From Candidatus Iainarchaeum sp. (GTDB taxonomy: Archaea; Iainarchaeota; Iainarchaeia; Iainarchaeales; JAZDDZ01), in NCBI GenBank assembly GCA_043809245.1, contig JAZDDZ010000007.1:14434-78433 (forward strand): 64,000 bases of DNA, given 5' to 3'. Below are positions 3,426-63,539 of the stretch, piece after piece. Within the stretch, counting starts at the first letter, position 1; each line of letters begins with the position of its first letter. Under the pieces are notes generated by a model. The model ran no database searches. It was not told the origin of the DNA and saw nothing but the letters and a program-made list of their open reading frames with translations. The position numbers were made by a program, and so were the translations under genes.

Positions 3426-3426
3426 A

Positions 3427-3843: not shown

Positions 3844-4084
3844 ACGCGTGCCCTCTGCCGTCAATCCATGCAAATTTCACTGTTTTGCCCTGAACTGTGT
3901 AGATTATTCTTAGCTTTTCAATTCTTTCACTTTTGAAGTTCTGCAAAGGGTAATGCAATGGTTTTCCCGCTTCAGGGTTTTCTGCAATTTTTATTATTTT
4001 CTTTTTGACCAGTTCCTGCAGCCGGGAATCAAGCTTTTTGTACGCTTTTTTGAATTTGCCAGAATAAGAAGAAAGATAATCCAT
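3836..4084 (-). CDS. Type II toxin, RelE/ParE family
   Basis: 82 aa. The pattern FKKAYKKL..LQELVKKKIIKIAENPEAGKPL...KLRIIYTV...IDGRGHAY matches the RelE/ParE fold signature. Its start overlaps the upstream small gene by 1 nt. Confidence 0.75.
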   Translation of the reverse strand: MDYLSSYSGKFKKAYKKLDSRLQELVKKKIIKIAENPEAGKPLHYPLQNFKSERIEKLRIIYTVQGKTVKFAWIDGRGHAYG

Positions 4085-4296
4085 CAGGCATCAAGCTCTG
4101 CAAGCATTTCTTTAACGGATTCAAATTTCTTTAATTTGCCCTGCTGCACTTCTTCAACTGCATTCCAAAATTCTGGGTCGCTAAATAATTCCAAGTCTTC
4201 AAGGTAATCCTTAAAATCCGCTTTCAGCCTTGAGGCTTCTGCAATCATTCCCTTAACTGCCTTTTTTTGGATTAAAACAGTTTTGCCATTAGCCAT
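4084..4296 (-). CDS. Putative cognate antitoxin (70 aa)
   Basis: Small acidic ORF immediately upstream of, and overlapping, the RelE/ParE gene. A GGAG Shine-Dalgarno (SD) sequence and a TATA-like TTTTTATAGGG lie upstream on the minus strand (4333-4343). Confidence 0.55.
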   Translation of the reverse strand: MANGKTVLIQKKAVKGMIAEASRLKADFKDYLEDLELFSDPEFWNAVEEVQQGKLKKFESVKEMLAELDA

Positions 4297-4359
4297 AATT
4301 TTTCTCCTAAAATATTCATTGGGCTAAAGCCCTATAAAAAGCTTGTGCACGTACTGATT

Positions 4360-5580
4360 TCACTTTTTCCCGAGTATTTCCAGCCCTGGAAGGGTTCCAT
4401 CGGAAAGGTATTGGAGCAATGCTTTTCCCGCCAGGCTCATGTGCTGAAAGTCAGAGGGAAGCAAACCCAAATCGCTTAAAGCCCTTTCAGTGTCCCCGCC
4501 CCCCAAAATGGAGTAAGTGCGGGAGAATGCAAGGCATTCAAGTATCTTCTTGGTGCCTAGGCGGAACGCGGTTTCCTCGTAAACCCCCATTGGGCCGTTA
4601 AAAACAGCCAGGTTTGAGGCCTTAATTTTTGACTTGAAGAGCTCAACAGTGTCATAACCTATGTCCATTGTGTCGAATTCCGTTGGCAAATCCTCTGCCT
4701 TTAACTCCTTTCTTTTATGCTTATTCGTGCTTCCATTGGCTTTAAACGCCAAATCCACGGGCAAAACAATCTTTTCCCCGAATTCCTGGAGGATTTTTTT
4801 GGCTTCAGGCAAAAGCCTGTCATGGCCTTTCATTTCAAAAAAACCGTCTTTTTTGCCCAATTCAAAGCCCTTGGCTTTTAGGAAAAGTTCGCCAAACAAG
4901 CCCCCCAGACAGGCCTCATCTGCTTTGCCTGATTTAAGCATTTTATGCAAAAGCTTAATCGAATCAGCGAGTTTTGAACCGCCCAAAACCAATAGCTTTT
5001 TGTCCTTTATTTCCTCAAGCTTGTGCAGTGCCTCCAATTCCTTTGAAAGAAATGGGCCTGCAACGCAAGGCAAGTGGTGCGCGAAGCCGACAACAGTTGC
5101 GTGCGAGCGGTGGCAAATACTTAAGGCGTCCTGCACAAACAAGTCGCCTAAAGGCGCGAGTTTTTTCACCATCTCGCACTGGGCGTGCTCCGAGGAAACG
5201 AGTTCCTTGTGTTCGTCTGAAACCATTCGCGTGTTCTCAAGCACGAGAATTTCACCGTTGCTTAAGCCCTTAATTGACTGCGTATAATTGTCCTCCCATG
5301 TGTTGAAGCCAACAGGCCTGTCAAGCAGCTTTTTTATGAGCTTTGCATGGCGGTAAAGGGAAACGAAATCGTCATCCCCGGGCCTTCCCTGGTGCGAGAG
5401 TACAGCCACTTTTGCGCCTTCCTCAACGAGATAGTAAATGCTTTTCGCGTGCTCCCTTATGCGCGAGGAAAGCACCACGCGCCCCTCAACCACTGAACTG
5501 TTGAGGTCTGCGCGCAGAAAAACGGTTTTTCCCTTCAAGTCCGGAACATCGTAAACAGATTTAAAATGCAATAAGCCCAC
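4360..5580 (-). CDS. pgk: Phosphoglycerate kinase
   Basis: 406 aa, GTG start. DLKGKTVFLRADLNS N-terminal motif, HQGRPG, and C-terminal SILGGGDT..A motif. Confidence 0.92.
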   Translation of the reverse strand: MGLLHFKSVYDVPDLKGKTVFLRADLNSSVVEGRVVLSSRIREHAKSIYYLVEEGAKVAVLSHQGRPGDDDFVSLYRHAKLIKKLLDRPVGFNTWEDNYTQSIKGLSNGEILVLENTRMVSDEHKELVSSEHAQCEMVKKLAPLGDLFVQDALSICHRSHATVVGFAHHLPCVAGPFLSKELEALHKLEEIKDKKLLVLGGSKLADSIKLLHKMLKSGKADEACLGGLFGELFLKAKGFELGKKDGFFEMKGHDRLLPEAKKILQEFGEKIVLPVDLAFKANGSTNKHKRKELKAEDLPTEFDTMDIGYDTVELFKSKIKASNLAVFNGPMGVYEETAFRLGTKKILECLAFSRTYSILGGGDTERALSDLGLLPSDFQHMSLAGKALLQYLSDGTLPGLEILGKK

Positions 5581-14431: not shown

Positions 14432-17400
14432 GCCCCGCCCCCAAGGAATTGCTGCCACCAAATCATGCTCAAATTGTTAATCCTTTCATAATGCATTCTC
14501 TTTAAGAACACAGGGTCAAGCCACCATGAAACGCTTGTGCCGTTAATCTGCGAATATGCGGCTGACATGTTTTTGTCAATGATTGAGAAGTCATGCGAGC
14601 CGAAAGACACTGCGTTCTTTGAAATATTCAAAGTGTAAGGCGCATTTGTGGAAAGGCTTGAGTTAAGGTAATTGGAGCTGAAGGAATAATCGGGATTGTA
14701 TTGTGTTTCGCTTATCTCCCTTGAAACCGCAAGGGAGTTTCCCTGCACGCTGAAAGCGTAAGCGCTTGAATCAGCCAAGGGCTTCCAGAATCCCGCGACA
14801 ATCTGCTCCTGCTGCAAAAACTTTGCATAGGAGTAAATCAGCTCGGTTCCGGCTTCAACGAAAACAAGGTGGAATTTGTTGTTGTTAGTTTCATCACTCT
14901 CGGCTATAAGGTTTGAGGGGTCAATGAGTATGTTTATGTCATGGGCTCCGGAAATGCTTCCCGAATTCACGGAGAAGTGCACATTGGCTTTTGCACCTGG
15001 CGCAAGAGAGGGCACATTGCCTGATGCAACGGTCTGCTTGTCAAGCAGAACTGAAACCGCGAATGCCCCTGAATCAGCCTGCGAATTGTTTGCAATCACA
15101 GCATTAACATCTATCCTCTGGCCCTGGAAAACCGTTGCGGGAACAGATGAACTTTCAAAGGAAAGGTCAGTGATCAAAGAGCCTATGTCAACCTCCATTA
15201 TGTTGTCCTGCTCGTTTGATTCCGTCACGACTTCAGTTGAGTCAACGAAGACGTAAAAAGTGCTTGCCGTGCCCTCTGACTGGAAAAGCGCTGTTGCCGC
15301 TGGCTGCTTTACCGCGCCCGCGGTGTTGATTGTTATCACCTGCGCCACTGGCTCCTCGTAATAGAAGAGCATGATTACATCCTTGTCTTTTTTCAGTGAG
15401 CCGATGAAAGTGACTGCGATTCCCTGTGAAGCCAGGGTGTTCTCGAAGAATGAAACGTAAAAGTTGTTGGAGTCAAAGTCCTCTGAGCTTATCAGGACAT
15501 TAAAGTCAACTCTTACAAGGTCTCCTGCAACAAAGACTGGCTTGCCCACGTCAATGCGCTTGAAGAAGAGGTTTGGAATGCAGCCCTCATCAACCAATCC
15601 GTTCAGGTTGTCGTCGAACAGGTTTCCGCACAGCTCAGGGCCTGCGAAGTAAACTGTTGTCGACGCATTGTTGTTTGCCTCGTTTGACTCTGCCACGGAG
15701 TTGTCAGGGTCAACGACTTCATAGAATGAAATTGTTTTTCCCTGCCATGAAGCCATTGCCGCGTCGTTTGCGTCGTAAGTGAATTCAAAGAGCAGGCTTG
15801 TTCCGTCGCTTCCCGCAAGGCTGTTCACGGTTCTGCTTGCGATTTCCCTTCCTGAAGGGCTTCCTTCCCTTAACGAAACCCTGAAGCTTGTGGCGGAAGT
15901 TGAGCCAAGATTGTATACTGCTGCAGCAAATGAAACCTTTGAATTGTTCTGCGCGATTCCACTGCTTGTAAGCGTTGCTGTAAGGTCTGCCTGGACTGAA
16001 GTGCAGCTTCCGTCGGTGTTGCAGGTGTCCCCTGAATTAGGGCAGCCGCAGTCAGAGCAATCGTTCACCAAAGAGCCATTTGAGCAGAACAATGGCTTTG
16101 CCGCAGAGCAGGCGTTATATGCCGTGCCATCAGAGCAGGATTGCGCCGGGCAGTCGCCTGCACAATTTGCGCTTGATTCATATGGCGAGTCGCAAAAGCT
16201 ATCGCCGCAAACCCAGCAGTCAGCAGGGCAGTTTGCCCTGGTTTCAGATGTGGTGCAGGAACCGTTGCCGCAGACCTCGCCCCCGGTTGGCCCCCCGCCT
16301 GAAGTTACTGTAATGGTAACGCTTTCAGTTGAGCTGTTCTGGTCAAGGTTGTCAGTTGCAATAACTGAATAGGCGTGTTCTCCCAATTCCTGCAAATCGA
16401 ATGAATAGGAAGTATTGGTTGAATTGTTTATCCAAGCGCTGCTGTCCACTTTGACCCAATAATTTTTGATGCCCGCGCCTGAATCAGATCCAGTGTAAAC
16501 AATTTCAACTGTTGATGAGGACTGCGAGGCGCCGTCGCTTGGGAAAGTGATTGAAAGCGTTGGCGCGGTTGAATCGTAATAAGTTGAATCGCTTAAAGCG
16601 CTTGACCAGTTGCCAGAATCATCTGAAACCTTAACGTAAACAGTTGCCGCCCCGTCAGTTGAACCGCAGCCGTAAGAGCCGGAGGCAATGTCAAAGTTTG
16701 TTACGCTTGAAGTATATGCTTGGTTTAGCCAGGGCCCTGAAGCGGAACAGCTGATGTTCATGTCAGAGGCATCAGCGCTTGCGACAAGCGTGATTGTGGG
16801 AGTTGAATCGCTTGTGCAGCCCTGTGCCTGATTGCATGTGCTGTCTGAAATCGTTGCGGATGCAAGCGTTGGCGCATTAGTGTCCTCTCCGTAACCCCAG
16901 GGCGAGAAGTGGTTCATGTCAGCGGTGATTTTGTTGTTCACGGTGTCAACTGTTGATTGCATTGCAATCCAGTCATTGGAGTCAACATCCCAGCGGTAAA
17001 TCTTGAGCTTCTGCTCGTCAGCGGTTGAGCAGGTTGGGGCGCAGCTTAGTTCGCCTTCGCTGTATGTGAGTGTGAGCTTTGCGGGCTTGTCGCTCAGGAA
17101 AGTAAGCGTTCCTTCGGGTGCGTCAAAGTTGAACGCGGCATACAGCCTTCCCCTCTGGAACGTTGGCGGAGAGCTGTTGTAGTCAATGCTTATGTTCGTG
17201 TCAGCGCCTGAAGCCATTCCGGTTGAGGGAATGAAGAGGTTGTAATCTCCGTAAGATGTGCTTCTCACGATTGCCCTTCCGTTTGTGTATGGAACCTGGA
17301 AAGGCGATTCCTTGTCGATTGTGCATCTCTTTGTTGTGGAGTTCGCCTTGTTGCCGACGCTGTCGTATGTTTCCACGCGGTAGTACATGAATCCGTCAAG

Positions 17401-50929: not shown

Positions 50930-51832
50930 TCACTCAATGAACTGCTCATAGCTGTCGCGGTTGAACTTGTAGAGGAAGCGCTTTATTTTCGCGCCCCTGA
51001 AGGAATATTTTTTCAAAACGTCCTTTTTTTCCCCGGAGAATTCATTGAACGGCTTTTTCTGCGAGGGGTCCAATAGGAAAAATTTGCCCCCTAGTTCAGT
51101 TGAAACCACTGCGTGCGTGGAAAGGTTGTCAAGCTCCGCGATAATCACTTCCGCTTTCCTGTCACCCAAAGCCATAAGGCAAGAACACAATAAGACTGAC
51201 AGGTCTTCGTCGTCGCCGAGTTTTTCCGTGAGGATTTCAGAGGGTGAAAGCCAGAAATTTATTTCCAGTTCCGCGTCAACAAATGAAATGTTTGAAACAA
51301 TGAAATCGAATACCTGTTCCGCTGACTGCAGAAAATTTTTTTCAAAGGAATAATTCTCGGGCTTGAAGTCGTTCACAAGTGACTGAACGGAAAGGTCCTG
51401 GCCGTCAACAAGCGCCTTCAGCTCGCCGACTGTTTTTTTTTCGGATTCGTTTATCAGGCCAGTGTATTTTTCAAGAAGGATTCGGTAAAGCCTGAATTTA
51501 ACTGAGTGGTCTTCTTCACTTGGGCCAATTGCTGAAATTGAGCCGTAGCGCTTGCGGAGCTCAGAGTACTTCTGCTTAACATCATCCAATTCCGATTCAA
51601 GCAAAGAGCAGTTGTTTTTCAGCTCCGTGTTGCGCTCCACAAGAAGTTCAATGGAAGGGGAGGAAACATGGGACAACTGCTGCTTGAGCAAAGCGATTTG
51701 TTCCTCCAATTCGATTTTCCTGTCAAAGGAAACGTTTTCGGAAAGTTCAGATTGAAGCGCTTCAAGGGTCCTAAGGAGGGATTGCTCGGCAGAGGTCTTC
51801 CTCAAAGCCTCAAAAGGCAGGGACTTCGCCAT
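50930..51832 (-). CDS. Coiled-coil protein with a C-terminal transglutaminase-like Cys-His-Asp core (tentative)
   Basis: N-terminal heptad-rich ~120 aa. The C-terminal LSVLLCSCLMALGDRKAEVIIAEL..STHAVVSTELGGKFFLLDP fits the C...H...D pattern of transglutaminase-like proteases. No signal peptide. Confidence 0.45.
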   Translation of the reverse strand: MAKSLPFEALRKTSAEQSLLRTLEALQSELSENVSFDRKIELEEQIALLKQQLSHVSSPSIELLVERNTELKNNCSLLESELDDVKQKYSELRKRYGSISAIGPSEEDHSVKFRLYRILLEKYTGLINESEKKTVGELKALVDGQDLSVQSLVNDFKPENYSFEKNFLQSAEQVFDFIVSNISFVDAELEINFWLSPSEILTEKLGDDEDLSVLLCSCLMALGDRKAEVIIAELDNLSTHAVVSTELGGKFFLLDPSQKKPFNEFSGEKKDVLKKYSFRGAKIKRFLYKFNRDSYEQFIE

Positions 51833-52483: not shown

Positions 52484-52580
52484 ATTGCATTAATGAAAAA
52501 ATTGAGTTAAAATGCCGCTTTGAAAAACCGCATAGCACTCTTTTTATAGGTTGAAGTCGTTTTATTATAGAGGCTCTCCA

Positions 52581-53243
52581 ATGGATAAAAACGCAAAGTA
52601 CGCGTTAATCATTTGCATTGCAATCATTCTTTTTGCCGCGGCTTATCTGCTGTTGGAGAAGAAACGCCAGGCAATCTGCGGCAACGGAGCCATAGAGCTG
52701 TTAGAGCAATGCGATGGAGTGCTAGGCTGCGCCGAGGGAGAAAAATGCTCGGCTGCGTGCGTTTGCGAAGAAATTGTGAAAGAAAATGCCTGGGAGAGGC
52801 AAACTGATGCAAGCCTTTACGACTGCAATGCATTCAATGGAATAGAGTGCGGCGAGGGAAGCAAATGCATAAGCGGGTTTGAGATTGAGGCAAAGCAGGA
52901 AAACTGCTGTGTTGCGGAAGGCTGCATTGATGTTGGGGGCGAGGAAAACCAGCCTGTTGATGAAAACGCGGGAAAAGTTATTGGGGTTAAGGATGAGAAT
53001 GCTGTAAACAACGGAGGCAGTGGAATCACGCAAACAGAACCGCCTGAAATAACTCCATGCGATTTCAATGCGGAAATAGTTGGAGTGGTTTGCCTGCAGG
53101 ACGACTGTTTGGGGGAATTCAAGGACGGCTGCTGCAACGGCTACTGCTCGAACGAGGAAGCTGAATTCGCTGAATGCGTCAGCAACTGCCTTGCAGCAGG
53201 AACATTTGAGCTTGACGCGTGCAGGGAGATATGCGCTTCATGA
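52581..53243 (+). CDS. Membrane-anchored or secreted Cys-rich acidic protein, first gene of the pilus locus
   Basis: MDKNAKYALIICIAIILFAAAYLL anchor, then ICGNGAIELLEQCDG (CGNG..E..E.CD Cys-repeat style) and many further Cys residues. I prefer the ATG at 52581 over 52551. Confidence 0.55.
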   Translation: MDKNAKYALIICIAIILFAAAYLLLEKKRQAICGNGAIELLEQCDGVLGCAEGEKCSAACVCEEIVKENAWERQTDASLYDCNAFNGIECGEGSKCISGFEIEAKQENCCVAEGCIDVGGEENQPVDENAGKVIGVKDENAVNNGGSGITQTEPPEITPCDFNAEIVGVVCLQDDCLGEFKDGCCNGYCSNEEAEFAECVSNCLAAGTFELDACREICAS

Positions 53244-53271: not shown

Positions 53272-53682
53272 ATGATTGGAAAAAAAGGCCAAGCCGGAGT
53301 GGAATACATGCTGGTGATTGCATTCATTTTGCTTGTGGCAGGAATCCTCTCAGCATATTCTTATACTACACTCGCGGAAAACGTGAAATATGACAAGGTT
53401 TCAAAGGCAGCCAAAAAAATCGGGGACTCAATCGACGGCGTCAACAGTTTCGGGGAAGGGAACACTGTTTTCGCGTCATTCGAGCTTCCGAACGGCGTGA
53501 TATCCGCAAGCGCAATGGGCTCGACAGTCAGCTTTACAGTCAGCACTTCAGCCGGAAACTCGGATTTTGTGGCATATACAAATGCAAGGATAACGCCTGT
53601 CACGCTTCCTTCAGCAGAAGGGCAGCATGAAGTCAAAATTGAAATAATTGACGGGAACGCGCAACTGATCGTGGTTTCATGA
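53272..53682 (+). CDS. Archaeal type IV pilin-like protein (class III signal peptide)
   Basis: MIGKKGQAGVEYMLVIAFILLVAGIL: a basic stretch, KGQ, then a hydrophobic helix. AAGGTGA SD 5 nt upstream. The 53080 ORF extension overlaps the upstream gene. Confidence 0.7.
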   Translation: MIGKKGQAGVEYMLVIAFILLVAGILSAYSYTTLAENVKYDKVSKAAKKIGDSIDGVNSFGEGNTVFASFELPNGVISASAMGSTVSFTVSTSAGNSDFVAYTNARITPVTLPSAEGQHEVKIEIIDGNAQLIVVS

Positions 53683-54041
53683 ATGGAAAGGCGCAGATTT
53701 CAACAGAGGCAATCGGTGCAATTGCCTTCGTGGTGCTGTTGTTGATAGTCATAGGAATCACTGTTTCTGACCTGAACGCACAGAAAGATTACATTGAGCA
53801 GACAACTGAAAACCAGAACGAATGCAAAAAAATTTCGGAAACAATAAGCCTTTTCACACTAGGCGAAGGAAGGGAACAAATGACCATTTGGATGGGAAAC
53901 ACCGCAACAGTTTCAAGCGGTTCGGTAACTGTCGGTGAAAGCTATTGCCATTATTTCGGTGAAGCCTATGACGCAATCCTTTCAGCCGGAAGCGTCAGGG
54001 TATACGATGAAAACGGAGTGGTAAAGCTTGAAAACATTTAA
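53679..54041 (+). CDS. Pilin-like protein (class III signal-peptide-like)
   Basis: MNGKAQISTEAIGAIAFVVLLLIVIGI. The ATG overlaps the upstream TGA (ATGA). Confidence 0.55.
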   Translation: MNGKAQISTEAIGAIAFVVLLLIVIGITVSDLNAQKDYIEQTTENQNECKKISETISLFTLGEGREQMTIWMGNTATVSSGSVTVGESYCHYFGEAYDAILSAGSVRVYDENGVVKLENI

Positions 54042-54525
54042 CAGCAAAGGCCAGGCAATAGCAGTCGACCTAGTCATTGCCACAATAATTTTTGCAATAA
54101 TTGTTTTCACGCTTTTGGGCATCGGCGAGGAAAATGTCGGAGCAATAAATGAAAAAGTTGAACTGAACGAAATCCATTCAAGGGCTGAAGGCGCGTTAAT
54201 GCAGCTGGTTGAAGGAAATGGAAACCCGGAAAACTGGGAGGGAATTCCCGCTGCACAAGTGCAGGAAATCGGCTTGGCTGAAAAAAGGCTTGAAGTGGAT
54301 GAAAAAAAGCTGAACGCGTTAAAAAACTTCGGATATGACGGCGCAAGAACACTGCTTGAAATAAACCCCTATGATTTCTTTTTCGACGTAAACGCATTAA
54401 GCGGCGAATATGTTTTCGCCGGGCTTCCCCCTATTGCGGATGCGACAATTGTTTCAATCAAAAGGGCGGTAACTTACAAGGGAGGCGAGGCTGTTGCCAC
54501 AATTAAGGTCTACAGGGCAAAGTGA
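54028..54525 (+). CDS. Pilin-like protein (class III signal peptide)
   Basis: (M)KTFNSKGQAIAVDLVIATIIFAIIVFTLLG. TTG start is uncertain; 14-nt overlap with the upstream gene. Confidence 0.6.
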   Translation: MKTFNSKGQAIAVDLVIATIIFAIIVFTLLGIGEENVGAINEKVELNEIHSRAEGALMQLVEGNGNPENWEGIPAAQVQEIGLAEKRLEVDEKKLNALKNFGYDGARTLLEINPYDFFFDVNALSGEYVFAGLPPIADATIVSIKRAVTYKGGEAVATIKVYRAK

Positions 54526-57238
54526 AAAAGCATTTGCATTCTCGCTTGACGCGACAATAGCGGTAATCATCCTTGTAAGTGTGCTGGCGGTAATCGGCGC
54601 AAACGCAACCGAAAAAAATCTTTCAGCGGAAAGCTGGCAAAGGCAGGCAACAGCAGACACATTCAATGTGCTGGAAAAAAGCGGTTTCCTGCTTGAGGAA
54701 ATTGACGCGAACGGCGCGGCCTTGGCAGCGCAAAACATACAGCAGAGGGCACTGCTGCTTCTTCCGGAAAACCTTGACCTGAATGTTTGGATAAAAGTGT
54801 ATGATGCAAACATCGGGAGATGCAGGCAAAACCAGCAGTTCAGCGAATGCTTTTCAGGCACGCCAAGCGCAGCCGCAAGCGTGGGAAGCGCGCAGCCAAG
54901 CGGAAAAAACATAATCTCCGGAAAAAAAATTTTCCTCAGAAAACAGCCGCCAAGCGACTGCGAACTGAATTATGCGGGATTCGCGAAGAAAAACGAAAAG
55001 CCATGGAATGCAATCACTTCCCCTGAAGCAATCTTTTTCGATGAAGATATTGGGGCGCGCGTTGACTTCAACGTATTCGTGAGCACAGAAGATGCAATAG
55101 AGTGCGGAATGGATGTAACTGTTACACTGATGGCATCTGTTCCGGACAACATAAGGAATCCTGTTGACATAATGCTCATTCTTGACAGGAGCGGAAGCAT
55201 GGGCTGGCCGCTCACAAGCCTTGACACCTCAGGAACAGGCAATGCAGTATTCGTGGACAACAATTACGCTTACTTGGCGGATGGAAGCGGGGGCTTGAGA
55301 ATAATTGACGTGAACGAACCGCTTCAGCCAGCGCTTGCAGGAACATACAACACAAGCGGCACAGCCTACGGCGTGTTTGTGCAGGGAAATTACGCATATG
55401 TTGCGGATGGACGCGCGGGATTAAGGATAGTGGACATTTCAAGCAAGTCAGCGCCAACGCTTGTGGGAACATACAATTCATCGGGAACCGCAATGGACGT
55501 ATTTGTTTCAGGAAACCTTGCATATCTTGCGGACTACGACAGGGGGCTGATAATTGTTAATGTGACAAACAAAAGCAGCCCGGCTTCTGTTGGAAGCTAC
55601 AATACAGGGGGATACTCTTATGGAGTATTCGTGGACAACAATTACGCGTACGTTGCGGATGGAAGCGCGGGATTAAGGATTTTTGACGTCAACACACAGG
55701 CATCACCGCAAGCGCGCGGAACATACAACTCTTCAGGAAGCGCAAGGGGAGTAAGGGTTATAGGGGACACAGCGTACCTTGCGGATTACGACGGCGGGCT
55801 TAGGATAATTGACGTAACAAACAAAAGCAGCCTGTCATCAATCGGAAGCTACAACACAAGCGGAAGGACATATGGCGTGTTTGTTGAAAACCAGTACGCA
55901 TACATCGCAGATGGAAGCGCGGGCGCGAGAAAAATAGACATTTCAAACCCCTCAAACCCACAGCTTGTAAAGACAGTTGACACGGAAAACAGCCACAACG
56001 GAGTATTCATTGACCGGAATTACGCGTTCATGGCAGCGGGCAGCAGCGGCCTTGAAATAATTGACGCAAACACCTTTTACAACCGGCTAAACTATGCACA
56101 GGTTTCCGCGGATTCTTTTGTTGATTACAATGCATGGCAGTTCGCGGACCAGTTAGGCCTTGCATCATACTCAACAACCGCAACGCTTAACAGGCAGCTA
56201 ATGCATGCAAGCGACGAGAACAGGATTGTGATAAAGTCATCAATTGATGCGCTTGTTGCAAACGGCTCAACCGCGACAGGTGATGGAATAAATGTTGCAA
56301 ACAACGAGCTGACCTCAAGCAGGTCAAACCCTTACGCGAAAAAATTCGAGGTGCTGCTTTCGGACGGCGGCACAAATTACGGAATGTCATCGACGACTGC
56401 AGCACAGCAGGCGGCAGCGGATAACATAGTGATTTACACTATTGGATTCAGTTCCTCGGTTGATGAGGGTGAAATGCAGAACATCGCAAACATAACAGAC
56501 GGAAACTATTACTTTGCCGCGGATGCCAACACCTTGCAGCACATATACCGGCTGATTGCCCTGCAGATACAGGAAAGCGCAAACGATGCCAATGTATCGG
56601 TGCCAGTCATCAGCGGGGCAACAGTAGTGGACATGGGTGGAGCAACAATCGTTGACGGGAACATGCTTTTCAACGCGGGAAGCATCCTGCCGGGAAGGCC
56701 CTGGACAGGAAGCTATGTGCTGAATTTTCCCTGCGACCACATTGCAAACTGCGGAGTAGATGCATTGAGCTTTCCGGGCCCCGGGGCATTCTTCACCTAC
56801 ACAGACTCAAATGGAGTCCATGTGATTGACTTCAATGCCTCGCGAACAGTCTCATTCCTAAACAGGGATTTGACTGTAAACGCATACGGGGCAAGGCTAT
56901 TGGGGGAAAATTTGGTTGAATTGGACGTGAACGTTGCAAACATCGGCGACCTAAACTCAGGGGAAACAGATTTGAATTTTCATTTGGGCGCAATAGACGG
57001 CTTGCCGCTTGGAAAACAAACCGTGGGATTCCTGTGTGGAAAAAACGACGAGGGATGCACGCAGACAGTGCAGCTATTTTCGCCGGTAAGCATCTCACAA
57101 CAGGGCGTCATCTACATAACTGTGAATGACGGCAACGCAGTAAGCGAATGCCCAGGCAACAACACTGATGCCGTAAACTGCTATTCGGTTCCCGCAACGC
57201 AGATAATAGAGCTTGAGTACAGGGTGTGGGAAAAATGA
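54494..57238 (+). CDS. Large pilin-like adhesin candidate: class III-like N-terminus and a vWA domain split by seven LVIVD repeats (beta-propeller)
   Basis: N-terminus RSTGQSEKAFAFSLDATIAVIILVSVLAVIGA. MIDAS motif DIMLILDRSGSM (55166-). Seven repeats of ..YAY(L/V/I)ADG.(G/A)GLRI(I/V)D(V/I)....P......Y (~55225-56085). The vWA fold then resumes (IDALVANGSTATGDGI, FEVLLSDGGTNYG, VIYTIGFSS, GNYYFAADANTLQHIY; to ~56575). The C-terminal ~220 aa is beta-rich. TTG start is uncertain. Confidence 0.8.
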   Translation: MPQLRSTGQSEKAFAFSLDATIAVIILVSVLAVIGANATEKNLSAESWQRQATADTFNVLEKSGFLLEEIDANGAALAAQNIQQRALLLLPENLDLNVWIKVYDANIGRCRQNQQFSECFSGTPSAAASVGSAQPSGKNIISGKKIFLRKQPPSDCELNYAGFAKKNEKPWNAITSPEAIFFDEDIGARVDFNVFVSTEDAIECGMDVTVTLMASVPDNIRNPVDIMLILDRSGSMGWPLTSLDTSGTGNAVFVDNNYAYLADGSGGLRIIDVNEPLQPALAGTYNTSGTAYGVFVQGNYAYVADGRAGLRIVDISSKSAPTLVGTYNSSGTAMDVFVSGNLAYLADYDRGLIIVNVTNKSSPASVGSYNTGGYSYGVFVDNNYAYVADGSAGLRIFDVNTQASPQARGTYNSSGSARGVRVIGDTAYLADYDGGLRIIDVTNKSSLSSIGSYNTSGRTYGVFVENQYAYIADGSAGARKIDISNPSNPQLVKTVDTENSHNGVFIDRNYAFMAAGSSGLEIIDANTFYNRLNYAQVSADSFVDYNAWQFADQLGLASYSTTATLNRQLMHASDENRIVIKSSIDALVANGSTATGDGINVANNELTSSRSNPYAKKFEVLLSDGGTNYGMSSTTAAQQAAADNIVIYTIGFSSSVDEGEMQNIANITDGNYYFAADANTLQHIYRLIALQIQESANDANVSVPVISGATVVDMGGATIVDGNMLFNAGSILPGRPWTGSYVLNFPCDHIANCGVDALSFPGPGAFFTYTDSNGVHVIDFNASRTVSFLNRDLTVNAYGARLLGENLVELDVNVANIGDLNSGETDLNFHLGAIDGLPLGKQTVGFLCGKNDEGCTQTVQLFSPVSISQQGVIYITVNDGNAVSECPGNNTDAVNCYSVPATQIIELEYRVWEK

Positions 57239-58203
57239 ACCGCAGGGGAATAATTTTTTCTTTCACGGCAATGCTTTTGGCTCTCGCTGTGCTTGGCTTG
57301 AGCGGAATCGGCACTTCAATGGAGTCAATGAACGCGCAGAAAAACGCGCAGATGAATTCCGTGAAGCTTGTGAATGAAAAATTCATGGAAATAGGCTCTT
57401 CCGCGACAGCACTTGAAAGGGATGGAAAGGCAAAAGAAATACAGGAAAGGGCGCTTCCGTTTGATTACGAAGTTGACGGGAATGCATTGGTGCTTTCGCA
57501 CATGCTGCCGTTAAGCGAGGCGCGTGTGATTTCATTCTTTGACGCGGTGAACGTTTACCTGCTTTTTGTTTCGGATAAAAATTATGCAAACGCATTCAGC
57601 GGGTTAAGCGTTGACGTTAACAGCATAAGGAACAGCTTTTGGGGAGGCGCCGATTCAAATGCCTCCTTCATCGTGCAGCCTTTCTGCCTTGAGGTGAAAA
57701 TCTTTGACCTGAATTTTGAATTCGGAAAAAAGAATTGCGCTGCAAAAACTTTCAGCGCAGCAGCTGATGTGAAAAGGGCCGACCTGAATATTTTCATCGG
57801 CGCCGGCGAGGACTACAATTCCGTTTCATGCATTTCAAACGGCGCGGCCGTGTGCCCAACAGATTCATTTAACCCGCCGAGTTCGCTGCCCTACTTCTCG
57901 CTGAACATTGACGACACCAATTGCTCCGGCTGCCTGCCTGATGGAAGCGAAAGCATTTCCTGGCATTTTGACCCCGCGCTTGAGAACAGCATAACTGTTT
58001 CATGCATTGGCGGCACCTGCAGCTCAAAGCCGATTGAGCTTGTTTTTGGGGAGCTGTTAAGGGAAATGCATTCAGGGCAGGCAGTTGAAGTGCATTCAAG
58101 GATTGAGTTCAGGAAAAAACTGGAAGCGTTTGAATTCAATGACTTCAATTACAGTGTAAGCATTCGCGACTTCAACCTAATGATAAAAAACAGGGATGAA
58201 TGA
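57235..58203 (+). CDS. Hypothetical pilus-locus protein with an N-terminal hydrophobic (pilin-like) segment
   Basis: MNRRGIIFSFTAMLLALAVLGLSG. The ATG at 57235 overlaps the upstream TGA (ATGA). Confidence 0.45.
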   Translation: MNRRGIIFSFTAMLLALAVLGLSGIGTSMESMNAQKNAQMNSVKLVNEKFMEIGSSATALERDGKAKEIQERALPFDYEVDGNALVLSHMLPLSEARVISFFDAVNVYLLFVSDKNYANAFSGLSVDVNSIRNSFWGGADSNASFIVQPFCLEVKIFDLNFEFGKKNCAAKTFSAAADVKRADLNIFIGAGEDYNSVSCISNGAAVCPTDSFNPPSSLPYFSLNIDDTNCSGCLPDGSESISWHFDPALENSITVSCIGGTCSSKPIELVFGELLREMHSGQAVEVHSRIEFRKKLEAFEFNDFNYSVSIRDFNLMIKNRDE

Positions 58204-59371
58204 AATGGGCTGGAAAATTTTGGCGGTTGTTTTCCTGGTTGCATTGGTTGCACTTGCAGCGTTCATGATTTTGCCGCAGCAAGAGGAAAAAAAAGAAATT
58301 CAGGCAATGGCTGTTGACGTGCTGGGCGCGCCAGAAAGCGTGAGCGCGGGGGAAACTTTTTTGCTCAGTGCGTCTGCGAAAAACGAAAACGGAGTGAGTA
58401 AAATAATATTTGAAGCTGCGGGAAAGGAGAATGCGTTTGATTGCGCGGGAAAAACTGAATGCACTGTTGAGTCTGCAATTGCATTTGGGGAAATAGGCGT
58501 GCAACAGGTGAAAATCAGGGCAATCGGCATTGATGCAAGGGAAGCAGGGAAAAAAATAATCGTGCGGGTAATGCCAAGGGAAAAGCAGTGCAATGACGAA
58601 ACGCCTTTCGGGAAATGTTCGGGGAAAAAACCGCTTTACTGCGAGAATGGGGCGCTGATTGAGATGTGCGGAGAGTGCGGCTGCATAGAGGGAATGGAAT
58701 GTGGGCAGGGAGGGAATTGCTCTGCGAAAGCGATTGCGCTGAAAATTGAGGGCTTGAGCGCCGAGCCGGCAAAAACAAAGCCAATGAGAGCAGTTACGCT
58801 AAAACTGGAATTGGCGAATAAAACCACTATTACCGCCAAAAAAGGCGCTGAGTACAGGTTAAGGGTGGAAATTTTTGATGAAAAAGGCAACAATGTGTGG
58901 GAAAAGGAAAAAAACTTTGTGTTAAATGCTGATTTGGCTCCTAATTCTGGTTTAATCCAGGGTTTTGGGGGAGTTGTGCTTGGCAGGGGAATTTTTTCCG
59001 CGCGCGCGGAAATTTTTGACGGGAACACTTTGCTTGATTCAGCGGAAGCCGCAGGAATTGTTGAAGTGATTGACGAGGATTTAGCGCCTGCCGCGCCTAC
59101 AGGCCTTGGTGCGTTTCCGGTTGTCAATGGGTTAAGGGTTTACTGGAGTGCGAACACGGAAAGCGACCTCGCCGCTTACAGGCTGTATGGAAACGTTGAA
59201 GCAAACTCGGCATACATAAGCTATGCATTCTTGAAGGAAATCAAAGCGCCAGAGACTGGAGTTGAACTGCTTGATTTGAATGCGGGAAAGTATTATTTTG
59301 TGTTGACAGCTGTTGACGGGCTTGGAAATGAAAGCCCTTACAGCCAGATAGCAGCAGCAAATGTTAAATAA
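58196..59371 (+). CDS. Membrane-anchored surface protein: Ig-like region, Cys knot and C-terminal fibronectin type III-like domain
   Basis: MNEMGWKILAVVFLVALVALAAFMIL anchor. CNDETPFGKCSGKKPLYCENGALIEMCGECGCIEGMECGQGGNC (58589-58720). FN3-like APAAPTGLGAFPVVNGLRVYWSANTESDLAAYRLYG...YYFVLTAVDGLGNESP. Confidence 0.6.
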   Translation: MNEMGWKILAVVFLVALVALAAFMILPQQEEKKEIQAMAVDVLGAPESVSAGETFLLSASAKNENGVSKIIFEAAGKENAFDCAGKTECTVESAIAFGEIGVQQVKIRAIGIDAREAGKKIIVRVMPREKQCNDETPFGKCSGKKPLYCENGALIEMCGECGCIEGMECGQGGNCSAKAIALKIEGLSAEPAKTKPMRAVTLKLELANKTTITAKKGAEYRLRVEIFDEKGNNVWEKEKNFVLNADLAPNSGLIQGFGGVVLGRGIFSARAEIFDGNTLLDSAEAAGIVEVIDEDLAPAAPTGLGAFPVVNGLRVYWSANTESDLAAYRLYGNVEANSAYISYAFLKEIKAPETGVELLDLNAGKYYFVLTAVDGLGNESPYSQIAAANVK

Positions 59372-59419: not shown

Positions 59420-60112
59420 ATGAAGAGGCAGGGTTTTTTCAGGCGAATACTCGCAAAAATAAGGCGCGAGAAAAAAGAGGAGAAAAAAAAGGCAAAGCCA
59501 AAGGCACATGCCAAGGCACAGCATCCCTTGGTCAAGCACGGGAAAAAATTTAAAATAGATGAAAAAAAGCTAAGGCACCTGGAGAAAAAGGTAAGTGCGC
59601 TTGCAAAAAAACACAATGTGCCGGAAAAGGAAATTCAAGAGCATGTGAAAAAAATCGAGGCAAAGAAAGTGATACTTAAAGCGCACGAGCTTCCAAATCT
59701 TGAGGAACTGGAGAAAAGGGTTCTACTTGCAAGCGGGCTGCCTGCTGAAGCGCCTAAAGGGCTGAAAACCATTGGCGCTCCCGCGGCTTCAAAAGCCGAA
59801 GAGGTGAAAGCAATCGCGGTCGAGCTTAAAAAGCACAGGATTATTACGGACTTTGACAGGGTTCTTTCGGCAGTGCAGGGGGAAGGGAAGACAAGCGTTC
59901 GGGTGCTAAACCTGGAACTCGGAATAGAAAAGAAAACAATCGATGAATGCTGTGCAATACTCGAGGAAAGTGGGCTGATTGAAATGCGGTATCCTGCGAT
60001 TGGCTCTCCCATGATTGAGGCCGCGGGATTTGAGGCGAAAAGAAAAGAGGAACTCTCGAAGAAAAAAGAGGAAAAAAAAGCCGCAAAGAAAAAGGCCAAG
60101 GGGGGAAGATGA
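59420..60112 (+). CDS. Lys-rich protein with a possible C-terminal winged-helix domain, translationally coupled to the pilus ATPase
   Basis: K/E-rich N- and C-termini. The central TSVRVLNLELGIEKKTIDECCAILEESGLIEMRY looks wHTH-like. The stop overlaps the ATPase ATG (ATGA at 60109-60112). Confidence 0.45.
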   Translation: MKRQGFFRRILAKIRREKKEEKKKAKPKAHAKAQHPLVKHGKKFKIDEKKLRHLEKKVSALAKKHNVPEKEIQEHVKKIEAKKVILKAHELPNLEELEKRVLLASGLPAEAPKGLKTIGAPAASKAEEVKAIAVELKKHRIITDFDRVLSAVQGEGKTSVRVLNLELGIEKKTIDECCAILEESGLIEMRYPAIGSPMIEAAGFEAKRKEELSKKKEEKKAAKKKAKGGR

Positions 60113-61620
60113 TGGCTGACAGGCTCCTGAAGGAATACGACCTTATCATAGATGAAATGAAGGCGAACGTAAAGATTGTGGAAAAGGAAAACGAGTTTGT
60201 CAAAATATACTGGCTTGATTTGCCTGAATTCGGGGAGGGAACAGAGGCGCTGATGAAAAACATAAAGCAAAAACTGCTTGTGGACAGCTCCATCCGCACG
60301 GATAAAATGCTTGACCCGAAATTCATCGATGAGCTTAAGGGAAAATTCAGGGAAAAGGCAGTGAAAATAATACAAAGGGAATTGCCGGCAATCGATGAAA
60401 AATCAAAAATATCGCTGATTGCGGTTCTACTGAATGACATGCTTGGCCTTGGAAAAGTGGAATTCCTTTTGTCTGACGGGAATCTGGAAGAGATTGTCAT
60501 CAATTCCGCGAAGGAGCCCCTTTGGATTTACCACAAGGAATTCGGCTGGCTGAAAACAAACGTTACTGTGGAAAGCGAGGCCGAAACCCAGAACTATGCA
60601 AGCATCATTGCGAGAAGAGTCGGAAAACAAATAACCACGCTTAACCCTTTGCTTGACGCGCACCTCATAACAGGCGACAGGGCAAACGCAACGCTTTTCC
60701 CGATTTCGGGCGCGGGAAACACGATAACAATAAGGCGATTCAGGAGAGACCCCTGGACCGTTACTGACTTTATCAAGAACAACACTGTCAGCAGCGAAAT
60801 GATGGCGTTAATCTGGCTGTCAATGCAGTTTGAATTGAACATCATTTTATCAGGGGGCACGGCAAGCGGAAAAACTTCATTTCTCAACGTATGCCTTCCT
60901 TTCATCCAGCCAAACCACAGGATCATATCAATCGAGGACACCCGCGAGATTGCGCTCCCCGAATTCCTGCACTGGGTGCCAATGACTACAAGGGAGCCGA
61001 ATCCTGAGGGAAAAGGAGCAGTGCAAATGATTGACTTGTTAGTGAACTCTTTGAGAATGCGCCCTGACAGGATAATTGTGGGAGAGGTAAGGAGGCAGAG
61101 GGAAGCGGAAGTGATGTTTGAGGCAATGCACACAGGGCACTCTGTTTACACCACGGTTCACGCAAACACCTCTGAGGAAACAATAAGGAGATTGACAAAC
61201 CCGCCAATCGAGATTCCGGCGGTAATGCTTGAAGCGGTTCACTTGAATGTCGTGATGTTCAGAAACAGAAGGCTTGGGGTTAGGAGAGTGCTTGAGGTCG
61301 GGGAATTCGTTCCGGAAAAAGTCGGGGCGGAAAAGGAAAGGGTCAAGGCAAACATCCTTTACAGGTGGAAGCCGGGCATTGACAAAATAGAAAAGCATGC
61401 GGACAGCATTAGGCTTTTCGATGAATTGTCGCTGCACACAGGGCTGATTGCAAGCGAGCTAGGGGAAGAAATACTGAAAAAGCAGAGGATACTTGACTGG
61501 ATGGTTAAGAATGACCTCCGCTCTTTGAAAGATGTCGGAAGGGTCATGGCAACCTATTACATGCACCCGGAGGAAATAGAGGAAATGGTGCAAAAAAACA
61601 AGACCTGGAAGGGAAAATGA
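60109..61620 (+). CDS. Type II/IV secretion-family ATPase (FlaI/ArlI / archaeal pilus assembly ATPase type)
   Basis: Walker A ILSGGTASGKTSFLN, Asp/His boxes, and RPDRIIVGEVRRQREAEVMFEAMHTGHSVYTTVHA. Confidence 0.92.
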   Translation: MMADRLLKEYDLIIDEMKANVKIVEKENEFVKIYWLDLPEFGEGTEALMKNIKQKLLVDSSIRTDKMLDPKFIDELKGKFREKAVKIIQRELPAIDEKSKISLIAVLLNDMLGLGKVEFLLSDGNLEEIVINSAKEPLWIYHKEFGWLKTNVTVESEAETQNYASIIARRVGKQITTLNPLLDAHLITGDRANATLFPISGAGNTITIRRFRRDPWTVTDFIKNNTVSSEMMALIWLSMQFELNIILSGGTASGKTSFLNVCLPFIQPNHRIISIEDTREIALPEFLHWVPMTTREPNPEGKGAVQMIDLLVNSLRMRPDRIIVGEVRRQREAEVMFEAMHTGHSVYTTVHANTSEETIRRLTNPPIEIPAVMLEAVHLNVVMFRNRRLGVRRVLEVGEFVPEKVGAEKERVKANILYRWKPGIDKIEKHADSIRLFDELSLHTGLIASELGEEILKKQRILDWMVKNDLRSLKDVGRVMATYYMHPEEIEEMVQKNKTWKGK

Positions 61621-61646: not shown

Positions 61647-62537
61647 ATGAACAGCACAATGATTCCATTCAACCCCTTTCCGCCAAACGTATTGATTGCA
61701 TTAAGCAAAAGGTTCAGGGGGATGGGGGCAAAAGTCGCAAGCGCGTTCCCTTACCTAAAGATTGAGCTGAAGCAGGCTGAAATAGATTTAAGGGCAGAGG
61801 AATACGGCGCGATAATTTTCGTGCTGTCCGCTTTCTACTTTGTAATGCCTGTGCTTATCTTTTACGTGCTTGCAACAAGGTTTTCGCCGGAAAATGCATT
61901 GCCCCTCTCGCTAACGATTGGCGCGATTTTCTCTTTTCTCGTTATCCTGCAGCTCAGCCTATACCCTAAAATGAAAATCAAGAAAAAATTAAGGAACCTG
62001 GAGCAAAACCTTGTGTTTGCGTTAAGGACAATTTTAGTGGAAATAAAGTCAGGGGTAAGCCTTTTTGACTCGGTTAACATGATTGCATTGGGAAATTATG
62101 GCGCGGTAAGCGAGGAATTCAAAAAAGCGGTTGACGCAATAAACACAGGCACAAATGAGGAAACCGCATTGGAGGACATGGCTGCAAGAAACCCCTCGCT
62201 TTTTTTCCGGAGAACCGTGTGGCAGCTAGTGAGCGGGTTAAGGGCTGGGGCTGATGTAAGCGTTGTCATAGGCGCGCTTGTGGACATGCTGATAAAAGAG
62301 CAGAAAAACCAGGTGGTACAGTATGGTTCGGACTTGAGAATGCTTTCGCTTGTTTACATGATGCTTGGAGTGATAATTCCCGCGCTGGGCCTAACATTCC
62401 TCATAATCCTCGCCTCTTTCCCGCAGATAAACGTGACTGAGATGCTTTTCTGGGGAATGCTTGGCGGCATAATAATCGCGCAATTCATGTACCTCGGCAT
62501 AATCAAGTCAAAAAGGCCGACTCTGTTGGGGAGCTGA
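61647..62537 (+). CDS. Pilus platform membrane protein 1 (single T2SSF domain; FlaJ/TadB/C-like)
   Basis: LVFALRTILVEIKSGVSLFDSVNMIAL..YGAVSEEFKKAVDAINTGTNEETALEDMAARNPS..FRRTVWQLVSGLRAGADV, flanked by TM helices. Confidence 0.8.
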   Translation: MNSTMIPFNPFPPNVLIALSKRFRGMGAKVASAFPYLKIELKQAEIDLRAEEYGAIIFVLSAFYFVMPVLIFYVLATRFSPENALPLSLTIGAIFSFLVILQLSLYPKMKIKKKLRNLEQNLVFALRTILVEIKSGVSLFDSVNMIALGNYGAVSEEFKKAVDAINTGTNEETALEDMAARNPSLFFRRTVWQLVSGLRAGADVSVVIGALVDMLIKEQKNQVVQYGSDLRMLSLVYMMLGVIIPALGLTFLIILASFPQINVTEMLFWGMLGGIIIAQFMYLGIIKSKRPTLLGS

Positions 62538-62543
62538 AAAAAA

Positions 62544-63539
62544 ATGTATTACCGCATTTCAGCGCTTGTGCCAAAAAAAGTTTTGGATGCGTTCAGAAAG
62601 GAACTGGACTACCTAAACATAGACATAAGCGAAAAAAAATTCGTTGGCTTCATTGTGAGCTACGGGTTTTTTTTAAGCATTGGAATCGCGCTTAACTTAT
62701 GGCTTTTCCTTGCAATGCCCGTTTACTCTTTCTTTTTGCTTTACGCGCTTTTCCTTGCGGGAAGCTATTTATGGCTGAGCATTACCTCTGAAAGCAAGGG
62801 AAAATTCGCGGAAAAAATTCTGCCGGACGCACTGCAGCTGATTGCCTCAAACGTTAAGTCAGGATTGACAACGGAAAAGGCATTGTTTGCCTCTGCAAGG
62901 CCTGAATTCGGGCCGCTTGAACTGGAGTTAAGGAGAGCCGGGCAGAAAATACTCGGCGGAGTTCCAGCGGAACAGGCATTGAACGATATCCCAAAGCGCA
63001 TCAAATCGCTCACGCTTGAAAGGACAATATGGCTTTTAAGCCAGGGAATCAACAGCGGCGGCCAGATGTCAGACTTGCTGATTCAGTTAAGCGACGACTT
63101 GAGGCAGCAGAATTCGTTGCAGCAGGAAATCAGCGCAAACGTTTCAATGTATGTCATGATGATTTTTTTTGCTGCGGCACTGATTGCGCCAATGCTTTTC
63201 GGCATAAGCAGCTTCATAGTGCAGATTTTCGCAAAGCAAATGCAGCTCATTCCATCAATTCCCGCTGACGCAGTTGCATCTGCGGGAAGCAAGTTCCAGA
63301 TAATAACGCAGTTTGTTACAACGCAGAGAAAGCCAATTGCCCCGGAATTCATTCAGGAATTCTCATTCTATTCGCTTGTAGTGACAGGGGTGTTTGCGGC
63401 GCTGACCATTGGAATAATCAACACTGGAAAAGAAAAAGGCGGAATGAAATTCATTCCCATCCTTTTGATTGTGATGATTGTGCTTTTCTTCCTGACAAGG
63501 TGGGCACTGACCTTGCTGTTCGGGGAAATGCTGCTGTAG
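62544..63539 (+). CDS. Pilus platform membrane protein 2 (single T2SSF domain; FlaJ/TadB/C-like)
   Basis: LPDALQLIASNVKSGLTTEKALFASARPEFGPLELELRRAGQKILGGVPAEQALNDIPKRIKS..LERTIWLLSQGINSGGQM, with TM helices on both sides. Starts 6 nt after gene 1 ends. Confidence 0.8.
   Translation: MYYRISALVPKKVLDAFRKELDYLNIDISEKKFVGFIVSYGFFLSIGIALNLWLFLAMPVYSFFLLYALFLAGSYLWLSITSESKGKFAEKILPDALQLIASNVKSGLTTEKALFASARPEFGPLELELRRAGQKILGGVPAEQALNDIPKRIKSLTLERTIWLLSQGINSGGQMSDLLIQLSDDLRQQNSLQQEISANVSMYVMMIFFAAALIAPMLFGISSFIVQIFAKQMQLIPSIPADAVASAGSKFQIITQFVTTQRKPIAPEFIQEFSFYSLVVTGVFAALTIGIINTGKEKGGMKFIPILLIVMIVLFFLTRWALTLLFGEMLL

Follow-up and report, generated by a model that had tools for sequence, protein, structure and literature searches.

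A von Willebrand factor A domain split by an LVIVD beta-propeller in a candidate modular pilin of Iainarchaeota

How do DPANN archaea recognize and attach to partner cells and surfaces? This is largely obscure, and we know of no cultivated Iainarchaeota (Diapherotrites). The question is raised here by a gene for a 914 amino acid protein in a 64,000-nucleotide stretch of Candidatus Iainarchaeum sp. (contig JAZDDZ010000007.1 of assembly GCA_043809245.1; hereafter the window). The gene lies in a pilus operon, and its family offers a concrete, conserved candidate for attachment, in which a predicted, invariant metal-dependent adhesion site stands beside an apparently exchangeable module. An earlier note, made from the sequence alone, had described the product as pilin-like and its von Willebrand factor A (vWA) domain as split by a beta-propeller. 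The open reading frame is present as stated there (54494..57238, + strand, 914 aa). In the window's list of open reading frames it starts with TTG, with GGAGG located 8 nt upstream, and the gene shares its first 32 nt with the end of the preceding one.

The vWA domain is split by a seven-bladed LVIVD propeller, on four independent lines of evidence. In the intact protein, Pfam VWA (PF00092; E 4.5e-17, 63.3 bits) matches over profile positions 37-172 only (aa 551-685). Because the match begins at position 37, the first ~36 positions, with beta1, the DxSxS motif and alpha1, are absent from it. The segment DIMLILDRSGSM (aa 225-236; nt 55166-55201) reads like the beta1 strand and DxSxS loop of a vWA, and sits 290 residues N-terminal of the point where the vWA resumes with alpha1. 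It contains the DRSGSM motif that the earlier note had placed from 55166, and the sequences with which the domain was said to resume (GSTATGDGI, LLSDGGTNYG and VIYTIGFSS) are all there. Excision of aa 241-524 in silico makes the Pfam VWA match contiguous over profile positions 1-172 of 174 and raises its score to 72.1 bits. The excised sequence aligns without a gap over the junction to P0147, a bacterial protein with PF13400 and VWA (33% identity, 191 aa, E 2e-20). P0193 (671 aa) is a natural relative without the propeller; its N-terminal part aligns to aa 9-233 of the window protein and its C-terminal part to aa 504-914 (40% identity), and Pfam matches its own vWA without interruption (profile 2-173).

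The fourth line is a full-length AlphaFold2 (AF2) model built on an alignment of 40 family sequences (mean predicted local distance difference test score, pLDDT, 86.3). Its order of elements is beta1 (224-231), 28 strands (240-524), alpha1 (531-543) and the remaining vWA through alpha6 (678-695). The alpha/beta elements of the vWA are all present, interrupted, and in canonical order. Structure prediction and hidden Markov model scans agree on a nested propeller, in the AF2 strand order and in the Pfam VWA and LVIVD matches.

The metal ion-dependent adhesion site (MIDAS) is judged complete because D231, S233, S235, T593 and D624 are invariant in the 40 family members, as is G234. The chain enters the propeller 4 residues past S235 and returns 6 residues ahead of alpha1, so the propeller emerges from the beta1-alpha1 loop, which to our knowledge lies on the MIDAS face in every vWA domain. 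Four relatives of ~650-670 aa (P0193, P0192, P0195 and P0202) have neither the DxSGSM motif nor a propeller. In P0193, the only one of the four aligned to the window protein, the metal site is degenerate, with DQSRP in place of DRSGS and no G-S/G-T threonine. These sequences hint that an intact MIDAS may go together with the presence of an insert.

The propeller itself had been described as seven LVIVD-type repeats of ~43 aa at ~55225-56085. We find seven in-register repeats of 42 aa, starting at aa 246, 288, 330, 372, 414, 456 and 498, the seventh truncated, which together span aa 246-525 (nt 55229-56068). Pfam LVIVD (PF08309) matches at E 3.1e-62 with six stretches above threshold, and repeats 1-6 have a mean mutual identity of 52% in protein and 56% in DNA. 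Judged by their order, the 28 strands that AF2 places between aa 240 and 524 would form seven four-stranded blades, with strand 240-244 closing blade 7. Foldseek matches the propeller to WD40-type propellers (TM-score up to 0.77) and to a propeller phosphotriesterase (5hrm_A; E 4.9e-14, TMt 0.48).

The gene is divided as follows, with the basis of each assignment in brackets.

54494..57238, + strand: whole gene, putative pilin-like vWA/propeller protein (open reading frame, Pfam, upstream GGAGG)
54494..54532, + strand: putative class III leader, aa 1-13 (MPQLRSTGQSEKA), ending K12-A13, the presumed cleavage site (conserved motif)
54533..54601, + strand: hydrophobic N-terminal helix, aa 14-36 (FAFSLDATIAVIILVSVLAVIGA), with D19 at +6 (conservation, AF2)
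54602..54943, + strand: N part of the predicted pilin-like module, aa 37-150 (AF2; stand-alone homologues of 143-174 aa align)
54944..55159, + strand: connector or stalk, aa 151-222 (AF2, family alignment)
55160..55210, + strand: vWA N-terminal segment, aa 223-239, with beta1 and the MIDAS loop D231-R-S233-G-S235-M (conservation, AF2, excision)
55211..56068, + strand: seven-bladed LVIVD beta-propeller, aa 240-525 (Pfam, AF2 strands, repeat register, Foldseek)
56069..56581, + strand: vWA C-terminal segment, aa 526-696, alpha1 to alpha6, with MIDAS T593 and D624 (Pfam, AF2)
56582..57196, + strand: C-terminal all-beta region, aa 697-901 (AF2, family alignment)
57197..57238, + strand: last strand, aa 902-914 (TQIIELEYRVWEK), and stop (homology to the C-terminal strand of stand-alone pilin-like proteins)

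In the N-terminal part, AF2 predicts a helix at 18-34, helices at 43-89 and strands at 94-105, 126-131 and 141-150, and this part of the putative pilin-like module holds the conserved C110 and C119. The connector consists of a low-confidence loop (162-186) and strands (191-215), with C156 and C204 conserved, and the C-terminal all-beta region contains the invariant cysteines C747, C753, C848, C855, C886 and C896. The ten invariant cysteines of the family favor an extracellular location. Among orthologues that bear a propeller, mean identity to the window protein is 66% in the beta1/MIDAS segment, 49% in the rest of the vWA, 39% in the propeller and 31% in the N-terminal module.

Is the N-terminus that of a pilin? 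The family carries the motif [KR][GA]-F-[AV]-F-[ST]-x-D followed by ~20 hydrophobic residues, conserved in ~30 orthologues. In the window protein it reads K12-A13/F14-A-F-S-L-D19 (a slash marks a putative cleavage site), and at least 90% of members keep F14, F16 and D19. The leader is short and charged and ends in [KR]-[GA] directly before the hydrophobic residues (K12-A13/F14 to A36), as class III signals do. Processing is likely at KA/FAFSLD rather than at TG/QS. The latter site was rejected, since TGQS is missing in orthologues and K[GA]/F.F[ST].D is conserved. The class III-like N-terminus described in the earlier note is therefore borne out by a conserved motif, and only its choice of TGQS, which is not conserved, had to be given up.

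A search of 1.84 billion representative proteins with a profile of aa 1-222 gave 286 relatives. The profile matches at or near the N-terminus in all 150 of the 286 that were listed, and in the short proteins among these the match covers most of the chain. Nine stand-alone homologues, all complete and 143-174 aa long, have the family N-terminal motif. At their C-terminal end stands ..(A/V)-E-(Y/L)-x-(V/A)-W.., which matches the last strand TQIIELEYRVWEK of the 914-aa protein, where Y909 is invariant and W912 is conserved in at least 90% of members. Because the stand-alone homologues have both the N-terminus and the final strand, the simplest reading is that residues 14-150 and 902-914 make up a small pilin-like module into which ~750 aa of cargo appear to have been inserted before the last strand. 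The AF2 models give a weak structural hint that fits such an insertion: the full-length model contains strand 141-150, which is absent from a separate model of aa 1-222 (helices 18-62 then strands, pLDDT 77).

The genes around the 914-aa gene resemble a type IV pilus operon. The earlier note had placed the gene directly after three small pilin genes, and three prepilin-like genes do precede it.

50930..51832, - strand: transglutaminase-like/CEP76-peptidase-like gene, 300 aa, divergent and upstream of the operon (conserved in related loci)
52551-53243, + strand: cysteine-rich 230-aa protein without a Pfam match, with a hydrophobic segment at its N-terminus; its gene closely precedes prepilin-like gene 1
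53272..53682, + strand: prepilin-like gene 1, ~136 aa, KKG/QAGVEY (motif)
53679..54041, + strand: prepilin-like gene 2, 120 aa, GKA/QISTE (motif; homologous to gene 1)
54028..54525, + strand: prepilin-like gene 3, 165 aa, SKG/QAIAVD (motif)
57226..58203, + strand: prepilin-like gene 5, 325 aa, RRG/IIFSF, no acidic residue at +5/+6 (motif)
58196..59371, + strand: conserved 391-aa protein with a single N-terminal transmembrane segment (synteny)
59420..60112, + strand: conserved lysine-rich 230-aa protein with a weak winged-helix match (synteny, profile match)
60109..61620, + strand: secretion/assembly ATPase (T2SSE; related to FlaI and TadA) (profile match)
61647..62537, + strand: platform protein 1 (T2SSF) (Pfam)
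62544..63539, + strand: platform protein 2 (T2SSF; ArlJ/GspF-like) (profile match)

The 914-aa protein is thus encoded together with a type IV pilus ATPase, platform proteins and other prepilins. Prepilin-like genes 1 and 2 are homologous to each other (hhalign probability 96%). Across loci, both keep the motif [KR][GA]/Q-x-x-x-E, gene 3 keeps [KR]G/Q-x-x-x-x-D, and the 325-aa gene keeps [KR]G/[IVL][ILF]F[ST], with the acidic residue missing in the window protein and in the orthologues inspected. In lacking it, the 325-aa protein recalls the tip subunits GspK and PilX of bacterial systems, which are without E5. The 300-aa transglutaminase-like protein has an N-terminal coiled-coil-like region, and its gene lies divergent and upstream of the operon in ~40 related loci.

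The earlier note had proposed a survey of archaeal pilus loci for the same fusion. Our scan of one genome per species collected 76 loci of relatives, about 50 of which encode full-length proteins, nearly all from Iainarchaeum/Diapherotrites and a few labeled Micrarchaeota. The order of a divergent transglutaminase-like gene, three small prepilin-like genes, the vWA gene, a ~325-aa gene and a ~390-aa gene is kept in ~35 loci, mostly of Iainarchaeota, and the same loci have the lysine-rich gene, the T2SSE ATPase and two T2SSF genes 3' of the ~390-aa gene. The window ATPase matches FlaI, TadA and VirB11 models, all below the family cut-offs (TIGR03819 E 9e-55), and is closest to that of the complete genome of archaeon GW2011_AR10 (71% identity). 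Its locus has the layout of the archaeal "system 1" (Epd-like) and subsystem 4A loci, in which an ATPase is accompanied by a platform split in two genes (10.64898/2026.04.22.720090).

What does the family carry at the point where the window protein has its propeller? Full-length homologues have 37-44% identity at 94-100% coverage, and almost all come from metagenome-assembled genomes (MAGs). Where they are named, they are called "VWA domain-containing protein" or "LVIVD repeat protein", and where an organism is given, it is Candidatus Diapherotrites. The distance from the N-terminal motif to DxSGSM is near constant across relatives (211-244 aa), as is the length downstream of alpha1 (~370 aa); the segment after DxSGSM differs, at 23, 134-159, 258, 300-316, ~450, ~500 or 921 aa. 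A repeat profile derived from the window detects four to seven LVIVD repeats in the inserts of 300-316 aa, and inserts of ~450 aa combine a propeller (5-6 LVIVD repeats detected) with an extra, unassigned interior segment of ~145 aa. Inserts of ~120-150 aa, present once or twice, have a common motif, ..GTW.V.GWND.P..DYNL.., and no Pfam match, and the 921-aa insert contains two Laminin_G_3 (concanavalin A-like lectin) domains by Pfam. Pfam gave no assignment for the non-LVIVD inserts of ~120 aa and ~500 aa. Two vWA paralogues in one MAG, Modern_marine.mb.22, carry different cargo, an LVIVD-containing insert of ~450 aa in L033 and an unassigned insert of ~500 aa in L059.

As judged from these lengths and profile matches, the loop after DxSGSM is a cargo hot-spot that carries a propeller, unassigned modules or concanavalin A-like lectin domains. 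Swapping of the module beside the metal site may thus be the means by which the protein's ligand specificity is tuned, whether to a host cell or to some other surface. We put forward tentatively, and at less than an even chance, that the beta1-alpha1 loop serves as a cassette for ligand modules on a pilus-tip pilin, where the propeller would give an integrin-head-like, two-part site that sets the attachment target. Both the predicted nesting of the cargo in a pilin-like module and the apparent use of the MIDAS-adjacent loop as an exchangeable cargo site go beyond the earlier note.

The subfamily with ~450-aa inserts, whose members are ~1056 aa long, is found at loci L017, L018, L020, L021, L024, L026, L029, L032, L038 and L043. 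The slot of the second small gene is enlarged in some of these loci (572 aa in L043).

Locus L079 has a different layout. The vWA-gene slot of the operon is occupied by a bare homologue, P0308 (146 aa; 4457-4897, + strand), and the slot of the third small gene holds an 851-aa gene (1911-4466, + strand) with the N-terminus NKA/QAIAYD. The 851-aa protein contains cysteine-rich repeats and GDSDNDGDFDD-type repeats and has no Pfam match. From this layout it appears that different minor pilins carry cargo in different lineages.

Two distant vWA proteins of Micrarchaeota/Ca. Ainarchaeum, P0139 and P0141, have canonical prepilin N-termini (KKA/QASME and RKA/QVSTE). Their N-terminal region differs from that of the family, and an insert of ~100 aa directly follows DRSGSM; the same vWA loop thus appears to take insertions outside the Iainarchaeota family. 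The bacterial Tad+VWA protein P0146 has a cysteine-rich insert of ~30 aa at this loop position.

Sequence, model and gene order together make it fairly probable that an Epd/Tad-like type IV filament system of Iainarchaeota (Diapherotrites, DPANN) has in the 914-aa protein a modular, minor-pilin-like adhesin. A class III signal peptidase would remove the short basic leader (aa 1-13) after K12-A13, and the hydrophobic helix F14-A36 would anchor the protein in the membrane. This helix would then pack into the filament core with the four neighboring pilin-like proteins, and the adjacent ATPase and platform would assemble the filament. The pilin-like module, predicted from homology to the stand-alone small proteins, would comprise aa 14-150 and the last strand (902-914), and would enclose a cargo of ~750 aa made up of a stalk and the vWA domain with its complete MIDAS. 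The seven-bladed propeller lies within the beta1-alpha1 loop in topology, and its three-dimensional placement beside the MIDAS is a prediction. The bulk of the protein points to a position at the tip or in a priming complex. There the MIDAS cation and the adjacent propeller may act as a two-part ligand-binding head, whose specificity would shift when cargo is exchanged at the hot-spot.

Several results weigh against this proposal. The predicted template modelling score (pTM) of the full-length AF2 model is 0.50, with uncertain inter-domain geometry. Past the putative cleavage site the protein has F+1 and D+6, as against the Q+1 and E+5 of the neighboring genes. The AF2 model of aa 1-222 matched no solved pilin in the PDB by Foldseek (best E 2.9), and when the N-domain is compared by hhalign with the four neighboring pilin-like families, the N-terminal helix alone aligns, at a probability of at most 28%. 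No prepilin/class III signal peptidase was found in the window or in 56 related loci by a screen limited to hydrophobicity and motif, which looked for open reading frames with several transmembrane segments and G.[GHA]D.

The main rival reading is a membrane-anchored surface adhesin or a pilus-base component that never polymerizes, with its N-terminus uncleaved, or cleaved yet retained in the membrane. The protein would then work in the assembly platform or on the cell surface. The protein has a single N-terminal hydrophobic segment, Foldseek detects no pilin fold in its N-domain, and 914 aa is very large for a filament subunit. Linkage in the operon would fit a platform or anchor role equally well, and TadG has been hypothesized to be a membrane anchor of the pilus (PMC4858521). 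We nevertheless consider this reading rather unlikely. Strict conservation of [KR][GA]/F.F[ST].D is typical of peptidase recognition and filament packing, not of a plain anchor, and the bare homologues, at 143-174 aa, have the size of pilins and take the same place in the operon. The bulky modular pilins PilB, GspK, ComZ and CofB, moreover, have a known or proposed place at the filament tip (10.1101/2021.01.27.428410).

Much less likely still is an ordinary Sec-secreted or S-layer-associated adhesin, cut by signal peptidase I at about IGA36/N and linked to the pilus genes only in the genome. The layout of n-region, h-region and small residues could be read in this way (R5 and K12; hydrophobic 20-35; I-G-A at 34-36). 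However, conservation falls on the start of the hydrophobic stretch and not on the region past it, and the stretch has ~20 residues or more, which is long for a Sec h-region. Such a protein would also not be expected to show tight synteny and translational overlap with prepilin-like genes in ~35 loci, and loss of the first 36 residues would deprive the small stand-alone homologues of nearly all that could anchor a fold. That the propeller is catalytic, making the protein a surface enzyme, for instance a hydrolase as certain seven-bladed propellers are, instead of an adhesin, is hardly credible: the match to phosphotriesterase 5hrm_A reflects the generic propeller fold, WD40 scaffolds do as well or better by TM-score, relatives have lectin-like or unrelated modules in place of the propeller, as fits interchangeable binding modules, and the MIDAS is invariant in the members that bear a propeller.

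How does the proposed modular minor pilin compare with known systems? Its closest analogues would be bacterial TadG/CpaL and S. sanguinis PilB. CpaL of Caulobacter crescentus, an orthologue of the TadG known from Aggregatibacter, has a predicted pilin module and a vWA domain with a full MIDAS that is divided by two beta-rich domains, and it has been modeled at the tip of the Tad pilus (PMC11870444). As in TadG/CpaL, the locus of a large, apparently pilin-like protein also holds genes for small (pseudo)pilins, a TadA-like ATPase and a pair of platform proteins, and the protein's N-terminal pilin-like segment is followed by a vWA with a full MIDAS. The window vWA halves align to a bacterial Tad(PF13400)+VWA protein, P0147, as given above. 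Unlike TadG/CpaL, the window protein has an archaeal host and a different N-terminal motif, and its cargo appears to be nested within the pilin-like module, not appended to it. The LVIVD propeller comes right after DxSGS, whereas the CpaL insert starts ~40 residues past the MIDAS serines. Pfam gave no match to PF13400 (TadE/G-like) in the 914-aa protein at E <= 0.01, so we regard it as a likely functional analogue of TadG and not as a member of its family.

PilB is a solved vWA modular pilin with a MIDAS-dependent adhesin module, and in GspK, a minor pseudopilin of the type II secretion system, and in Thermus ComZ the module is inserted into the pilin beta-sheet (10.1101/2021.01.27.428410). 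The window protein would resemble all three in combining a carrier pilin module with an effector module, and GspK and ComZ in the insertion into the pilin sheet, which is here suggested by the common last strand. It differs from PilB, where the vWA is C-terminal and uninterrupted. The second level of nesting, a propeller in a vWA, is not described among the modular pilins of that survey, which used the bacterial N-methylation signature IPR012902 and from whose text archaea are absent (10.1101/2021.01.27.428410).

The best Foldseek match to the whole model is SpaC of L. rhamnosus GG, a sortase-pilus tip adhesin (6m48_B; E 2.6e-14), with a globally poor superposition (root-mean-square deviation ~32 A over ~600 columns). 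A MIDAS-bearing vWA and beta-rich stalk domains are found in both proteins, and SpaC is a pilus adhesin, as the window protein would be. SpaC belongs to an unrelated, sortase-linked type of pilus and has no class III N-terminus. RrgA and GBS104 are further sortase-pilus tip adhesins with a decorated vWA. In the sortase-pilus adhesins the extra vWA elements are arms and not a propeller.

PilY1/PilC of type IVa pili, to which the earlier note had compared the protein, also pairs a vWA with a beta-propeller in a pilus-associated adhesin. This comparison holds for function only. PilY1 is not a pilin, and its propeller is of the PilC/PilY1 type and lies C-terminal, in series after the vWA, whereas the propeller here is of the LVIVD type and nested. 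Pfam matched only LVIVD and Beta_propel in the 914-aa protein and found no PilC-type propeller.

The note had further called the topology the reverse of that in integrin alpha, and the nesting order is indeed opposite by Pfam and AF2. Integrin alpha chains with an I domain also pair a seven-bladed propeller with a MIDAS vWA by domain insertion, and their ligand site is where the propeller and the MIDAS domain meet. In the window protein the propeller is instead inside the vWA and is built of LVIVD repeats, not FG-GAP. Pfam found no FG-GAP match in the 914-aa protein, and no homology to integrins was detected beyond the common folds.

Lastly, the earlier note had suggested an adhesin of a type not known to have been characterized. 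The general design has precedents in CpaL and PilB, but an LVIVD propeller inside a vWA was not found described in the open-access papers searched, and neither was a vWA-bearing archaeal pilin. In the 2016 census of archaeal type IV pili, vWA appears only as the regulator ArnB and by analogy with TadG (PMC4858521), and the words "vWA" and "propeller" are absent from the text of the 2026 preprint on type IV filaments (10.64898/2026.04.22.720090). We also considered whether the 914-aa protein could be a cytoplasmic vWA regulator like ArnB; this was ruled out by the N-terminal hydrophobic segment and the ten invariant cysteines.

If the proposed architecture is right, the family would extend to archaea the modular pilin idea, documented so far for bacteria, and would link archaeal Epd-like systems to the bacterial TadG/CpaL design. 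The three levels of nesting, a propeller in a vWA in a putative pilin-like module, would also make it a case study in protein evolution.

Other parts of the window encode proteins with no part in this argument. Scans of the whole window turned up neither a tRNA gene nor an Rfam family above the gathering threshold. A single open reading frame of 6710 aa (14428-34560, - strand) has Laminin_G_3 (4 stretches), Big_3_3, Big_13 and CARDB domains. Directly downstream, and overlapping its end, is a gene for a 902-aa CARDB/CarboxypepD_reg protein with C-terminal transmembrane segments (11753-14461, - strand). Both look like the giant surface proteins common in DPANN genomes. The gene at 115-2790 (+ strand) encodes the catalytic subunit of an A/V-type ATP synthase, whose sequence is broken by an intein bearing a LAGLIDADG homing-endonuclease domain (assigned from Pfam ATP-synt_ab, ATP-synt_VA_C, Intein_splicing and LAGLIDADG_3).

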